In this document: positions 2,298 to 18,627 of the stretch, piece after piece
How the letters are laid out: each line of letters begins with the position of its first letter
How positions within the stretch are numbered: the first letter of the stretch is position 1
Program-made: the position numbers and the translations under genes
NCBI GenBank assembly: GCA_964594835.1
Contig: CAZQNA010000015.1
Span: 1,210-29,545 of the forward strand
From: an uncultured Nitrososphaerota archaeon
Lineage (GTDB): Archaea > Korarchaeota > Korarchaeia > Korarchaeales > Korarchaeaceae
Reading direction: 5' to 3'
Length of the DNA: 28,336 bases
Notes under the pieces: generated by a model
Told to the model about the DNA's origin: nothing
Database searches by the model: none
What the model saw: only the letters and a program-made list of their open reading frames with translations

Positions 2298-4232
2298 TCA
2301 CGGTGGGATCCTGATTCCCCTCCTCTCAAGCTCTCCTGCCTCCTTCTCCAGCCCCAGCTCCCCCAATCTAGCCCTCCTCGGGATTCCCGTCTCAACGTCC
2401 CACTTCCTGTACTGGTAGTACTCGTCGAGCATCTGGTCCAGCTCGACGACCTGCCCCTTGGCTGGCCCCCTGGGCATCGGCACCTTGGTGAACCTCTCTG
2501 GCAGCGAGTCGTCCTTCCTGGTCAGGCCCTCCCTCACGTTGAACAGCCTCTGGAGGTTCACTATCCTAGCGCCGATCAGCCTGAGGTCCGCCTCTGTGTA
2601 CCTCTTCCCGGTCACCAGCGTCAGGGCCTCCGCTATGTCTGGATAGAAGAACACGGGCGGGATGATGGTGCCGTACTTGCACAGGCCGACGGCCTCGACC
2701 ACGGCGCCGAAGTCCTCCAGCTCCGCTACCATGATCCCCTTGTACTTGGGGTTGAGCCTGTCGGTCATCTCGGGCAGGTACTGCTCCCCGAACCTCTCGA
2801 CTATCTCCCTCTCGAAGCCCACCTCGTCCAGCACCGGGAACGCGTAGAGGTGGTCTGCCCCGCGGTTGGAGGTGGCGTGGGCCAGGCCCATGCTCTTCTG
2901 GGCCCTGCCGTCCTGCGCGGCTATCTCCATCTTCTTCACGTGCATGGCGTACTTCTCGGTCCCCCTCTCGACCTTCTTGGCGGCCCGGTAGACGCCCTCG
3001 GCCAGCAGGTCCCCGAAGCCCTTCCTGAGGGCGATCATCTCGATCAGCTGGACTATGAGGTCCGGGTCCCCCCACTCGAGCTCCAGGCCTCCCGTGTCCT
3101 CCTTGGTGAGGAGGCCCTTCTCCCAGCACTCCATGGCCCAGGCTATGACGCCTCCGGTGGATATGACGTCCATCCCGTAGAGGTTGCACAGGTGGTTGGC
3201 GTAGATCAGGGCCTCCAGGTCGCTGTTCCCCACGTTGGCCCCCAGCGCGTCCAGACCCTCGTACTCCGGCCCCTTCCCTATCATCGCGTACTTGCCCGAC
3301 GGCACCCGGACGAACCGGCCGCACCTCTGGTAGCAGGCGAAGTCCGCCTTTGGCTTGAGCAGGTACTCCCTAGTCACCCTCTCGCCGGAGATCTTCTCCC
3401 ACTCGTCGAACACGCCCTCCCTGTGGTTGTACGCTGGAAGCCTCCCTATGGCCTGCATGAGCTCGACCAGGCTGTTCGTGCCGTATTTCACCCTGTCGGG
3501 CGTGAACGGGTGGGCGAGCATCCTCCGGCCGTACTCGATCATGGTCTCGTAGAACTCGTCGGGCCTGGCCACCTTGATGGGCCTGTACCCCCTGGCCGCG
3601 ATGGCCTTGAGCCTCTTGGAGCCCATTACCGCCCCTATGCCCGCCCTGGCCGCGGCCCTGCCGTGGTCGTTGAAGACTCCGGCGAACCTCACCAGGTTCT
3701 CGCCGGCCTGACCTATCACGGCCACCTTCACCTGCCTGTCCCCGAGCTCCTCCTTGATCACGTCCTCCGTCTCGTAGGTCGTCCTCCCCCAGAGGTGGCT
3801 GGCGTCCCTTATCTCGGCCTTCCCGTCCTCGACGTAGATGTAGACCGGCTTGTCAGACCTGCCGGTGACCACGACCGCGTCGAATCCGGCGAACTTGAGC
3901 TCGGCGCCGAAGTGCCCGGCGGCGTGCGCCTCCCCGTAGACGTCAGTTAGCGGGGACTTGGCGGCTACTATGTGCCTGCTGGCCTGCGGGAATATCGTGC
4001 CGGTCAGGACTCCCGTGGCCAGTATGAAGACGTTGTCTGCGCTGAGCGGATCGACCTCGGGGCCAACGAGGTCGAACAGCCACCTGGCGGCGAATCCCGT
4101 TCCACCCAGGTAGTTCAGCGCGAGTTCCTCCTCGAGGGGCTTGGTGACAACCTTCTGTCGGGTCAGGTCGACCCACAGGACCTGACCCGCCCAACCCCCG
4201 TACCTCTCGGCGACTCCAGGAGACTCATCCAT
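2298..4232 (-). CDS. aor: Tungsten-dependent aldehyde:ferredoxin oxidoreductase family protein (paralog 3), 644 aa
   Basis: GWAGQVLWVDLT, YLGGTG, AKSPLT, GHFGAELKFAGFD, GQAGENLVRFA, AARAGIGAVMGSKRLKAI, GPEYE, YGMDVISTG, SNRGADH, RLFNVREG..RKDDSLPERF. Start reset to ATG 4232 behind GGAGGTGA; the 840-aa track ORF is an out-of-frame overlap extension. Confidence 0.93.
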   Translation of the reverse strand: MDESPGVAERYGGWAGQVLWVDLTRQKVVTKPLEEELALNYLGGTGFAARWLFDLVGPEVDPLSADNVFILATGVLTGTIFPQASRHIVAAKSPLTDVYGEAHAAGHFGAELKFAGFDAVVVTGRSDKPVYIYVEDGKAEIRDASHLWGRTTYETEDVIKEELGDRQVKVAVIGQAGENLVRFAGVFNDHGRAAARAGIGAVMGSKRLKAIAARGYRPIKVARPDEFYETMIEYGRRMLAHPFTPDRVKYGTNSLVELMQAIGRLPAYNHREGVFDEWEKISGERVTREYLLKPKADFACYQRCGRFVRVPSGKYAMIGKGPEYEGLDALGANVGNSDLEALIYANHLCNLYGMDVISTGGVIAWAMECWEKGLLTKEDTGGLELEWGDPDLIVQLIEMIALRKGFGDLLAEGVYRAAKKVERGTEKYAMHVKKMEIAAQDGRAQKSMGLAHATSNRGADHLYAFPVLDEVGFEREIVERFGEQYLPEMTDRLNPKYKGIMVAELEDFGAVVEAVGLCKYGTIIPPVFFYPDIAEALTLVTGKRYTEADLRLIGARIVNLQRLFNVREGLTRKDDSLPERFTKVPMPRGPAKGQVVELDQMLDEYYQYRKWDVETGIPRRARLGELGLEKEAGELERRGIRIPP

Positions 4233-4240
4233 ACTCGCTC

Positions 4241-17115: not shown

Positions 17116-17304
17116 ACGCCCTTTTCGGGAATCATATTAATCTAACAGGTGGAGCTAACCCGCGGGCCCCCAAGAGAGGTTAGAACCCCGAACCAGTCTT
17201 CTCCCAGGTCGTCACGCCCGAAGGTCCGGTCGAGAGAGTTCTTCGAGCCTGCTCAGATTATTAGAAACCCCAGCGGAGGTCCACACAGTCGGGGGGATCG
17301 CGCC
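17116..17304. promoter_or_regulatory. Divergent promoter region between the ABC operon and ssnA
   Basis: Head-to-head genes; AT-rich ATCATATTAATCTAA (17131-17145) and AGATTATTAGAAA (about 17255-17267). Confidence 0.45.
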
Positions 17305-18627
17305 GTGATACTGACCTCCAGGTGGGTGGCGACGTTCGGGGAGGGCATCGGCCTCATCGAAGACGGCGCCGTTCTCGTTGAGGGGAACCTGATCCGGGAC
17401 GTGGGCCCGAGGGAGCGGATAGTCAGGGAGAACCCCGGCGAGGACGTGATCGAGTTCCCCAAGTCGGTGATGATGCCCGGGCTGATATGCGCCCACTGCC
17501 ACGCATACGGCGCCTTCGCCAGGGGGATGCCGCTGAAGGTTGAGCCCCCCACGAGGTTCGTGGAGATCCTTGAGAGGATATGGTGGCACCTGGACAAGAG
17601 GCTCACCCTGGACGACGTCTACTACAGCGGGCTGGTGACGGCGATAGGGGCCGTCAGGCACGGGACCACCACGATGTTCGACCACCACGCCAGCCCCTTC
17701 GCCATCACCGGGAGCCTTGAGAGGCTCGCCGAGGCCTTCAGGAGGGTCGGCGTCAGGGCCAACATAGCCTACGAGGTCTCAGACAGGGACGGGCTCGACA
17801 GGGCCGAGGAGGGTATCAGGGAGAACGTCGAGTTCATCAAGAGGCACCAAGGAGACGGGTTCATCACCGGGAGCTTCGGGCTCCACGCCCAGCTCACCCT
17901 CTCGGACGAGACCCTGGAGAAGGTCGTCGAGGCGGCCAAGGGGCTGGACACGGGGTTCCACATACACGTGGCCGAGGGGGTCGAGGACGTCTTCGACAGC
18001 CTGGAGAAGTCTGGCAGGAGAGTGGTGGAGAGGCTCTGGGGGGCCGGCATCCTGGGGGAGAAGACCATCGCGGCCCACTGCGTGCACACCAACGAGAGGG
18101 AGCTCAGGATACTGAAGGACACCAAGACCAACGTGGTCCACAACCCCGAGTCCAACATGAACAACGCGGTCGGGGTGGCGCCGGTCGTCAGGATGATGGA
18201 GCTAGGCATCAGGCCAGCCCTGGGGACGGATGGATTCACGATGGACATGTTCAGGGAGGCGAAGGTCGCCTACACGCTCCACAAGCTCCACATGGCCGAT
18301 CCCAGGGTCATGGGGGCCGACAAGGTGCTCGAGATGCTCTACCACAACAACTCCGAACTCGCGGCTAAGTACTTCCCCAGGCCGCTCGGCAAGATCGTTC
18401 CGGGGGCGTTCGCCGACCTCGTGGTGCTGAGCTACAGGCCGTACACTCCCATGCACGACGGCAACTTCCCGTGGCACTTCATATTCGGAATGGACGCCTC
18501 CCACGTGACGGACGTCGTTGTGGACGGGAAGTTCGTGGTCAGGAACGGAGAACTCCTCACTGTCAACGAGGACGAGATCTTCGACGAGGCAAAGGAGCTG
18601 GCGAAGGCGCTCTGGAATCGGCTCTGA
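17305..18627 (+). CDS. ssnA: SsnA-family metal-dependent amidohydrolase (putative aminohydrolase), 440 aa
   Basis: MPGLICAHCHAYGAFARGM, ILERIWWHLD, GTTTMFDHHASP.AITGSL, YEVSDRDG, FGLHAQLTLSD, FHIHVAEG, AAHCVH, HNPESNMNNAVG, LGTDG. DHHASP and NPESNMNN are characteristic of SsnA. GTG start 17305 after GGGGGGA. Confidence 0.85.
   Translation: MILTSRWVATFGEGIGLIEDGAVLVEGNLIRDVGPRERIVRENPGEDVIEFPKSVMMPGLICAHCHAYGAFARGMPLKVEPPTRFVEILERIWWHLDKRLTLDDVYYSGLVTAIGAVRHGTTTMFDHHASPFAITGSLERLAEAFRRVGVRANIAYEVSDRDGLDRAEEGIRENVEFIKRHQGDGFITGSFGLHAQLTLSDETLEKVVEAAKGLDTGFHIHVAEGVEDVFDSLEKSGRRVVERLWGAGILGEKTIAAHCVHTNERELRILKDTKTNVVHNPESNMNNAVGVAPVVRMMELGIRPALGTDGFTMDMFREAKVAYTLHKLHMADPRVMGADKVLEMLYHNNSELAAKYFPRPLGKIVPGAFADLVVLSYRPYTPMHDGNFPWHFIFGMDASHVTDVVVDGKFVVRNGELLTVNEDEIFDEAKELAKALWNRL

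Follow-up and report, generated by a model that had tools for sequence, protein, structure and literature searches.

We analysed a 28,336-nt stretch of DNA from an uncultured archaeon of the family Korarchaeaceae (positions 1,210-29,545 of contig CAZQNA010000015.1, assembly GCA_964594835.1), referred to below as the window, which carries three genes of the aldehyde:ferredoxin oxidoreductase (AOR) family interleaved with genes predicted to serve the uptake and degradation of nucleobases. The host genome comprises 1.82 Mb in 24 contigs, is 97% complete and has a GC content of ~0.65. Genes of the locus were called from an open reading frame (ORF) listing combined with Pfam and NCBIfam profiles, and those of its relatives were obtained with a simple ORF picker. 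An initial annotation of this DNA had described a BMP-type importer, ssnA, a hydantoinase-type gene, a PreA-like gene and three AOR genes in a single locus and had noted the lack of any gene of the xanthine dehydrogenase (XDH) family; all of the named genes were recovered at the positions given below, and tblastn searches with three XDH queries gave no match in the window.

Gene content of the locus

The genes on the minus strand form two blocks, which are separated by 201 nt between the BMP and FeS3 genes. The redox and ring-opening block has the gene order FeS3-AOR3-PreA-like-FeS2-AOR2-HYD-AOR1. Each of the three AOR genes, AOR1 (2298-4232, with an ATG start at 4232), AOR2 (5596-7563) and AOR3 (9312-11243), encodes a catalytic subunit with the AFOR_N and AFOR_C domains. 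The AorA-like polyferredoxins FeS2 (7567-8061, with a start at 8061 or 8103; Fer4_11 and related families; 16 conserved Cys) and FeS3 (11250-11744; Fer4 families) are 52% identical to each other, and the Cys motifs of FeS2 were invariant in the polyferredoxin alignment (A1). The PreA/UacX-like gene (8119-9306) encodes an FMN barrel (DHO_dh) followed at the C-terminus by a 2x[4Fe-4S] domain (Fer4), and HYD (4241-5599; Amidohydro_1) encodes a cyclic amidohydrolase resembling allantoinases, hydantoinases and dihydropyrimidinases. The importer block consists of an ATPase with two ABC_tran domains (15535-17115; PF00005 in two stretches), permease 1 of the BPD_transp_2 family (14462-15538; PF02653, 147 bits), permease 2 (13520-14458), a hydrophobic ORF that falls into one cluster with permease 1 and homologues from the related loci L008, L010 and L012, and a BMP/PnrA-family substrate-binding protein with an N-terminal membrane anchor (11946-13244; PF02608, 135.5 bits), for which the sole NCBIfam match was to a B6-type model at a weak score (40.4 vs 400 bits). 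A divergent intergenic spacer of 189 nt (17116-17304) separates the ATPase gene from ssnA, which lies on the plus strand (17305-18627, with a GTG start at 17305). Neighbouring genes overlap by 4 nt at the ATPase/permease and AOR2/HYD junctions, and the remaining gaps within the blocks measure 3, 3, 5, 6 and 8 nt, apart from 57 nt before FeS2 and 275 nt between permease 2 and the BMP gene; the tight or overlapping junctions noted initially are thus the rule, with few exceptions. In the metatranscriptome library X20, 21 short contigs of low depth matched the locus with 88-98% identity and derive from a relative; the eight pieces listed fall on AOR1, HYD, the AOR2/FeS2 junction, the PreA/AOR3 junction, AOR3 and ssnA. 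These contigs are a weak hint, and no proof, that the locus is transcribed, and no conclusion attaches to the stretches that they leave uncovered.

The SsnA protein passed the cut-offs of both of its curated models (539.7 vs 444 bits for NF005540 and 507.1 vs 455.5 for TIGR03314). HYD remained under every curated cut-off, including those for allantoinase (TIGR03178, 337.7 vs 357.85) and D-hydantoinase/HyuA (TIGR02033, 300.4 vs 393.25), and by these scores is assignable to the cyclic amidohydrolase group only; its homologues in related cassettes are 44-57% identical to it. The PreA-like protein likewise scored under the PreA cut-off (NF006183, 199.9 vs 335 bits), has no FAD/NAD domain and is accompanied by no PreT partner. 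It aligns to residues 530-818 and 919-998 of pig dihydropyrimidine dehydrogenase (DPD) and retains Asn609 and Asn736 of that enzyme, while S670, C671, P672 and nine further residues of the same loop fall in gaps. The Cys671 loop was missing from 12 of 12 archaeal-type PreA-like rows (alignment A2), and two rows from a divergent metagenomic cluster (see below) carry CPH at this place. We take Cys671 to be the catalytic loop residue that protonates carbon during C=C reduction, and three Asn residues of DPD, 609 and 736 among them, to be pyrimidine-binding. Since the carbon-protonating Cys is lost, the PreA-like protein would seem better suited to the reduction of a C=N than of a C=C bond.

With a PF01180 barrel, an Fe-S domain, no FAD/NAD domain and ssnA 8 kb away, the PreA-like protein resembles UacX in architecture and gene context. 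As described in a preprint on the bacterial reductive urate pathway (Li et al.), XdhD reduces urate to 2,8-dioxopurine, which is dearomatised by YgfK or, in C. difficile, by the FAD-less and PydA-like UacX; the rings are then opened by SsnA and HyuA, and YgeW or UacY, YgeY and YgeX complete the breakdown together with the carbamate kinase YqeA. According to the same work, ring reduction by YgfK is unfavourable on its own, the FAD-less UacX probably needs reduced ferredoxin, and SsnA, whose family was surveyed in bacteria, is a marker of uricolytic clusters. The locus matches the middle of this pathway in its UacX form, with SsnA, a FAD-less PreA-like reductase and a hydantoinase-type amidohydrolase, a point in support of the initial annotation. 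Elsewhere, the host genome encodes a carbamate kinase and a YgeY-like M20 hydrolase. It differs in that three AORs and two polyferredoxins are interleaved where XDH would be expected, the importer is a BMP-type ABC system, the reductase is without the Cys loop and the host is an archaeon. An uncharacterised PreA-like family ("dehydrogenase X1") was previously tied to hyuA, ygeW, ygeY, ssnA and xdh (Barba et al., 2013; PMC4016543); in the available text of that paper AOR is not mentioned, the word "tungsten" is absent and "ferredoxin oxidoreductase" stands for pyruvate-ferredoxin oxidoreductase.

Judged by its gene content, the locus is probably a unit for the uptake and degradation of nucleobases. 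In such a unit the BMP-family ABC system would import a purine-type nucleobase or nucleoside, the PreA/UacX-like FMN/Fe-S protein would reduce the ring, and SsnA and the hydantoinase-like HYD would open the rings as their counterparts do in bacteria. Pyrimidines, hydantoins or another N-heterocycle are improbable as the substrate in place of purines, whatever the AORs do, although a PreA-like protein acting as a dihydropyrimidine dehydrogenase analogue and HYD acting as a dihydropyrimidinase would account for steps one and two of pyrimidine breakdown by the reductive route. The reductive pyrimidine pathway (PreAT/PydA, dihydropyrimidinase and beta-ureidopropionase) shares with the locus an FMN barrel with a C-terminal ferredoxin domain beside a cyclic amidohydrolase, HYD does match D-hydantoinase/dihydropyrimidinase models (300 bits), two of the three presumed pyrimidine-binding Asn are kept, and the related loci L013 and L021 have HYD with no SsnA within 10 kb. 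However, the PreT partner is missing, the archaeal clade throughout has lost the loop with the catalytic Cys needed to reduce C5=C6 of uracil, and related cassettes contain adenine deaminase and purine-type TRZ/ATZ deaminases. The SsnA of the window, moreover, stands above its cut-off and belongs to the family that, according to Li et al., marks uricolytic clusters. For the AORs, we tentatively propose from this context, as the best of several readings, that their targets are ring carbons of purine-type bases and that the polyferredoxins pass electrons between them and the PreA-like protein, a role that we regard as plausible yet short of probable.

An AOR clade linked to PreA-like genes

All three AORs of the window are full-length matches to AFOR_N (260-290 bits) and AFOR_C (410-454 bits). 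They score far under the NCBIfam AOR equivalog NF007354 (231, 272 and 248 vs 868 bits) and are not GAPOR (NF040818, 34-51 vs 1300 bits). Against solved AORs their scores range from 409 to 475 bits, the best solved relatives of AOR2 being 9mqx (475 bits) and 1aor (429 bits). The host genome encodes 10 AOR-family genes, four of which (AOR1, AOR2, AOR3 and C1_280439) are 49-53% identical to one another and 30-45% identical to the remainder.

Searching genome contigs with AOR2 gave 79 loci, for which the neighbourhood was set at 10 kb. A PreA-like gene was found within this distance in 17 of them and an SsnA-like gene alone in two, and the other 60 had neither. In a FastTree phylogeny of 111 AORs (101 from the loci and 10 from the host genome), all 35 PreA-linked AORs fell into a single clade of 54 rows (support 96), in which 13 rows were unlinked, several of these on short contigs, while none of the 51 locus-derived AORs outside the clade was linked; many of the loci are kin, so that these counts overstate independence. 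A quick IQ-TREE search (LG+G4, SH-aLRT only) was run on 67 rows, from which the rows of L009, L011, L033 and L044 had been dropped as near-copies and in which 18 of 57 outside rows and 3 of 5 divergent-cluster rows were kept. It gave a clade of 37 rows (support 98) that unites the three AORs of the window with 25 of the 28 linked rows. Within this clade the AOR1 and AOR2 sub-lineages were distinct (each with support 100), and AOR2 and AOR3 grouped together (support 100).

Linked loci were found in Kor-type Thermoproteota, two Bathyarchaeia lineages, Geothermarchaeota, Heimdallarchaeota, Thorarchaeota, Baldrarchaeota, one unclassified archaeon and one metagenome-assembled genome (MAG) of Chloroflexota. 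The initial annotation had called for a survey of whether ssnA, PreA-like, hydantoinase and BMP genes repeatedly accompany this AOR clade; they do so in several archaeal phyla, in support of that annotation. The Baldrarchaeota locus L025 has one member of each AOR sub-lineage, and the Heimdall-, Kor1- and Dive96-type loci have AOR1 and AOR2; the triplication is therefore old, with each copy kept. Since each of AOR1, AOR2 and AOR3 is conserved in its own right in different phyla, three AOR functions have been maintained.

When the proteins of 25 loci were clustered, the families present in at least four loci were AOR (25), polyferredoxin (15), PreA-like (14), SsnA/TRZ-type amidohydrolase (9), HYD-like (8), a 96-aa protein (7) and ABC transporter parts (4). 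No aldehyde-forming enzyme recurred among these 25 loci. SsnA-like genes are present in L019, L020, L025 (455.6 vs 444 bits) and L031, and genes similar to TRZ/ATZ-type deaminases in L020, L021, L025 and L043. Locus L013 of Bathyarchaeia has an adenine deaminase gene (Adenine_deam_C, 221.9 bits) set between AOR and PreA-like genes, and a BMP-type ABC system flanks the AOR/PreA block. The deaminase and SsnA marks point to purines as the likely substrates. A separate scan of metagenomes for PreA-like genes (80 loci) identified four close relatives of the window's gene (L088-L091), all four with clade-type AORs adjoining, and the order in L089, FeS-AOR3-PreA-FeS-AOR2-HYD-AOR1, is that of the window.

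Presence and absence were compared across a phylum set of 43 genomes, which, these genomes being kin, amount to roughly five or six independent lineages. PreA-like genes occurred in 11 genomes and clade-type AORs (E <= 1e-160 to AOR2) in 14; all 11 PreA-bearing genomes carried a clade-type AOR, and 29 genomes had neither. SsnA orthologues were present in 10 other genomes of the set (62-93% identity). Given 10 AOR-family genes in the host, it is conceivable that ordinary aldehyde-detoxifying AORs, unrelated to their nucleobase neighbours, came to lie here by chance. We consider such a coincidence highly improbable, as the linkage extends over at least eight named lineages and concerns one AOR clade only (35 of 35 linked AORs inside it against 0 of 51 outside), the presence/absence patterns agree across the 43 genomes, and the junctions in the window are overlapping or 3-8 nt long. 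From this pattern of conservation, the AORs are probably functionally coupled to the PreA-like protein.

The clade also has an active-site signature of its own. We compared 116 aligned AOR rows (42 core-clade, 69 other and 5 divergent-cluster rows), with reference to alignments to 1AOR, three other solved AORs and FOR. Glu313 of the PEYE motif (1AOR numbering) is kept in 42 of 42 core-clade, 68 of 69 other and 5 of 5 divergent-cluster rows, and His448 in all 116; we take these two to be the catalytic residues of AOR. The position of 1AOR Tyr427, equivalent to FOR Tyr416, which together with FOR Glu308 and His437 presumably lines the active site, is Tyr in all five solved AOR/FOR chains aligned. 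In all 42 core-clade rows, including AOR1, AOR2 (Gln436) and AOR3, it is occupied by Gln, and in all five divergent-cluster rows by Trp. Among the 69 other rows, the residue is Tyr in 36, His in 17, Gln in 7, Thr in 3, Val in 2, Ala in 2, Asn in 1 and Trp in 1, and the seven Gln outside the core clade all belong to the wider 54-row clade. Further positions found only in the clade are Gly438, Ser443, Arg476, Gly478, Tyr493, Pro521 and Phe524 (AOR2 numbering). AOR2 and AOR3 hold all four Cys of the CxxCxxxC motif and the distal site, which we take to be the [4Fe-4S] ligands in AORs. In the AOR1 sub-lineage, 9 of 10 rows, the AOR1 of the window among them, have Asp at the position of the leading Cys of CxxCxxxC.

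The tightest adjacency kept among the related loci was PreA-FeS-(ThiS)-AOR, and it held even where no amidohydrolase gene lay nearby (L014, L015 and L024). This arrangement, together with the retained Glu and His, would also suit AOR-polyferredoxin pairs that oxidise an ordinary aldehyde (acetaldehyde, or one derived from sugars or amino acids) and hand the low-potential electrons directly to the PreA-like reductase, which lacks an NAD(P)H domain and would stand in place of the FAD subunit AorC. The probable need of UacX for reduced ferredoxin and the unfavourable reduction by YgfK alone, as reported by Li et al., agree with such a supply of electrons. Still, we consider it unlikely, since one AOR would suffice as an electron source and two or three conserved sub-lineages accompany a single PreA-like gene, any ferredoxin-reducing enzyme of the cell could provide the electrons, no aldehyde-forming enzyme recurs in the cassettes, and the exchange of Tyr for Gln in 42 of 42 rows argues for an altered substrate.

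Several other features of the related loci were recorded. The 96-aa gene that lies between FeS and AOR2 in relatives belongs to the ThiS/MoaD family; it is not specific to this system, occurring also beside unlinked bacterial AORs, and the association of ThiS/MoaD with AOR is already on record (PMC2948915). The neighbours of ssnA in G047 (genes for a LysA-like decarboxylase, a carbamoyltransferase and a DapA-like protein) are probably biosynthetic and were not used as evidence. A paralogous cassette, with no counterpart in the host genome by tblastn, occupies positions 789-11314 of L043, the second locus of a Kor-type MAG, in the order DeoC/LacD-family aldolase, PreA-like (37% identity), AOR, FeS, M20 peptidase, TRZ-type deaminase, HYD-like and AOR. 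AOR-PreA-amidohydrolase cassettes may accordingly form a family whose members serve differing substrates. Some AOR matches in relatives (e.g., G017:C4:409036-410988 and G014:C9:95-2029) contain one or two in-frame stops, which could reflect alignments running past gene ends or broken gene copies.

Possible chemistry of the AORs

The gene content, the conserved linkage, the identity of the clade and its active-site signature are observed, whereas for the proposed action on purine-type bases we infer the substrate, the direction in which each AOR works, the electron wiring and the metal. The AORs, with their AorA-like polyferredoxins, would add oxygen at C-H positions (C2 and C8), would reductively remove the 6-oxo group, or would do both. 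Hydroxylation of C2-H or C8-H would follow the logic of aldehyde oxidation, and removal of the 6-oxo group, which converts an amide carbon to an aldimine carbon as in the reaction of XdhD, would be the nitrogen analogue of the acid-to-aldehyde reduction run by AORs at low potential. The polyferredoxins would carry electrons between the AORs and the PreA-like reductase in either direction. The conversion of hypoxanthine to dihydro-2,8-dioxopurine would require two oxidations, one dehydroxylation and one ring reduction, with a net redox change of zero, and such a scheme would therefore fit three AORs, one reductase and two electron wires. In its most specific form, which we regard as doubtful though worth stating, the AORs would be W (or Mo) purine hydroxylases/dehydroxylases that form a closed circuit with the polyferredoxins and the PreA-like protein: hydroxylation of hypoxanthine at C2 and C8 would pay for 6-oxo removal and ring reduction, and the product would be ready for SsnA and the hydantoinase.

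Three known systems bear on this chemistry. P. furiosus AOR (1AOR) and Aromatoleum AorABC (8C0Z) share with the locus the AFOR_N/AFOR_C domains, Glu313, His448, the AorA-like polyferredoxin partner and the cluster Cys motif, which is kept in AOR2 and AOR3, as well as the ThiS/MoaD gene that accompanies AOR in relatives. In contrast to them, the clade of the window has Gln for Tyr427, insertions of its own (with Arg476, Gly478 and Pro521 in AOR2 numbering) and, in AOR1, Asp for the first cluster Cys, and a PreA-like flavoprotein neighbour replaces the FAD subunit AorC. The XDH/aldehyde oxidase family (XdhD, DOPDH and purine hydroxylase) handles both aldehydes and N-heterocycles and resembles the proposal in transferring oxygen at an sp2 carbon beside a ring nitrogen. 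By analogy, action of AORs on the ring would be chemically reasonable, although the fold and cofactor of that family are unrelated to those of AORs and the locus has no match to the XDH-family model PF02738. BamB, the AOR-family subunit of class II benzoyl-CoA reductase (4Z3W), offers a precedent for an AOR-family enzyme with an FeS partner that acts on an aromatic ring; it is distant (256 bits over a partial alignment), and the AORs of the window, unlike BamB, keep the AOR-type Glu and His.

Downstream of ssnA, the minus strand of the window (18967-26474) carries genes for HdrB/C-like (CCG, Fer4_17), MvhD/FlpD, HdrA-like, CooC-like, CooS (Prismane/CODH, 634 bits) and CooF-like proteins. We rejected these Hdr and carbon monoxide dehydrogenase (CODH) genes as a BamB-like electron supply: they lie beside ssnA only in L171, from the same genus, and in no other cassette, and the "CooF" matches in other cassettes are the polyferredoxins themselves. 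Next to the CODH genes, the minus strand (26540-28245) carries an ORF of 385 aa, which has a helix-turn-helix domain and a weak N-terminal match to radical SAM, followed by a V4R-domain protein, and the two are possible regulators. At the other end, a large FG-GAP/beta-propeller repeat protein (2-1459, minus strand) runs off the window; the ORF next to it (1757-2395, minus strand) encodes 212 aa with a hydrophobic C-terminal half, has no family match and shares 98 nt with the 3' end of AOR1.

Xanthine dehydrogenases, pathway ends and biological meaning

A number of observations weigh against an action of the AORs on the purine ring, and some of them concern XDH. Contig C2 of the host encodes two XDH-family large subunits, whose best models score 504-572 bits, all under cut-off, together with a 2Fe-2S subunit and XdhC-, MoeA- and MocA-like genes, and these enzymes could perform purine hydroxylations and dehydroxylations. 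The island (L001 = G000:C2:58000-77999, positions 5921-19071) has large-subunit ORFs of 892 and 798 aa and also holds pyrB and an allantoinase/dihydroorotase-like gene above the allantoinase cut-off (398.7 vs 357.85). Mutual exclusion between the cassette and xdh, as envisaged in the initial annotation, thus fails. Across the phylum set, XDH was found in 9 of 43 genomes and in 7 of the 11 with a PreA-like gene; the PreA-bearing genomes without it are G017 (91% complete), G043 (71%), G045 (75%) and G047 (93%). Five cassette genomes of other groups gave an XDH match in two, one of which (G012) is already in the phylum set, and PF02738 was not matched in the Bathyarchaeia genome G001, the Heimdallarchaeota genome G004 and the Baldrarchaeota genome G005, for which completeness is not given. 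Taken over all 15 cassette-bearing genomes, seven had no PF02738 match, and in no clade-type AOR locus did an XDH gene lie within 10 kb. Because these seven genomes are without PF02738 while others carry XDH, XDH is dispensable for the cassette, yet not excluded by it. The idea that the AORs occupy the XDH slot is only partly supported: it gains from the seven genomes and loses from the XDH genes of the host and from a second group of loci in which both enzymes stand together.

This second metagenomic group has PreA-like proteins 30-35% identical to that of the window, with an SsnA-like gene adjoining in 11 loci. In seven of the longer loci (L096, L099, L102, L103, L104, L106 and L150), a distant AOR (31-37% identity) and a polyferredoxin lie near the PreA-like and SsnA-like genes. 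L099 and L106 share a co-directional series that begins with genes for an MttB-like methyltransferase, an OCD-family protein, a corrinoid protein, an MtmB-like methyltransferase, FeS, AOR and ThiS and continues with an OTC-type carbamoyltransferase, PreA-like, SsnA-like, ATP-type hydantoinase A/B, opine dehydrogenase-like, XDH FAD subunit and XDH genes; in L099 it spans positions 1627-21167. This divergent cluster might serve the degradation of a methylated N-heterocycle. XDH and its FAD subunit are present on five of the eight contigs with the cluster, which places AOR and XDH in one apparent operon, and in L164 (7929-8908) FeS and AOR survive only as fragments of 79 and 90 aa, respectively, within an otherwise intact cluster. 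Because AOR and XDH coexist there, the AOR of the divergent cluster is no stand-in for XDH; it must have another role, which would agree with the supply of electrons from an aldehyde considered above.

That alternative gains further from C1_280439, the fourth clade-type AOR of the host, which has Gln at the Tyr427 position. In its locus (L002, contig C1, 6392-10661), an FeS gene lies upstream, and there is a divergent FAD gene of the Pyr_redox_2 family but no PreA-like partner, a layout like that of an ordinary AorABC enzyme. The DeoC/LacD-family aldolase at the head of L043 is also a possible source of aldehyde, the nearest solved relatives of the window AORs are broad-range aldehyde oxidoreductases, and the retained Glu/His pair fits ordinary aldehyde oxidation equally well. 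For tungstate uptake, WtpA gave no match, and PF13531 (SBP_bac_11) gave weak generic matches only. The phylogenies come from quick methods (FastTree and a short LG+G4 search), and the kinship of many loci, noted above, has the same bearing. We know of no AOR-family enzyme that acts on purines.

The ends of the pathway are also only partly accounted for by the bacterial model. The search of the rest of the genome suggested in the initial annotation yielded, on contig C5, a carbamate kinase (430.8 vs 358.25) whose gene is divergent from that of the YgeY-like M20 hydrolase (295.2 vs 321, the called ORF being without the first ~44 model positions). It yielded no ygeW at cut-off in the host genome (best 182.4 vs 500) and no ygeX (best 42 vs 532.25), two further points against the proposed pathway, and as neither ygeX nor a true ygeW was found, the end of the pathway would differ from the model. 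The C5 locus (L087, 22-13836) encodes an amino-acid permease, the YgeY-like hydrolase, the carbamate kinase, a Zn-dependent alcohol dehydrogenase-family protein, a protein like tartronate-semialdehyde and 3-hydroxyisobutyrate dehydrogenases, a class-III aminotransferase, the alpha subunit of an ADP-forming acyl-CoA synthetase and IOR alpha, and it may be the downstream end of the pathway.

With the usual outlet for diaminopropionate, YgeX, not found, a different ending would be needed, and the AORs could belong to it by oxidising aldehyde-level or N-formyl/carbinolamine products that arise after ring reduction and hydrolysis, such as a semialdehyde from diaminopropionate or beta-alanine or a glyoxylate-type compound, in place of the intact ring. 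The aminotransferase and the semialdehyde dehydrogenase-like gene beside the YgeY-like and carbamate kinase genes on C5 agree with this, as do the best scores of HYD, which are against allantoinase models, and no new AOR-family chemistry would be required. Such a late step nevertheless seems to us rather unlikely, since no aminotransferase or semialdehyde-forming gene recurs inside the cassettes and the conserved adjacency is to the first, reductive enzyme and not to late ones. Three paralogs, moreover, would need three aldehyde intermediates, and the intermediates given in the sections of Li et al. consulted include no aldehyde.

Turning back to action on ring carbons, what is new in the locus is a variant of the reductive nucleobase pathway into which AOR-family enzymes are built. 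To our knowledge, the AOR family has been characterised as aldehyde oxidisers, with BamB as the one clear exception, and changes in the oxidation state of purines are made by XDH-family Mo enzymes in every pathway known to us. We found no literature report of a link between AORs and nucleobases in a search that left subscription journals and supplements largely outside its reach. An AOR clade tied through gene order and co-occurrence to nucleobase-degrading genes and bearing its own active-site signature is a testable candidate for a new type of reaction. If the proposal is true, these would be the first AOR-family enzymes to act on N-heterocycles, a new reaction class for the family, and would provide a route of purine breakdown independent of XDH across many archaeal phyla. 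Should the AORs instead be suppliers of electrons, an oxidoreductase hard-wired to couple aldehydes to heterocycles would still be novel. With this finding, the reductive urate pathway, recently solved in bacteria, is extended to archaea, and action of the AORs on the ring, if confirmed, would explain how uncultured and often XDH-free archaea of sediments and vents use nucleic-acid bases as sources of nitrogen, carbon and energy.

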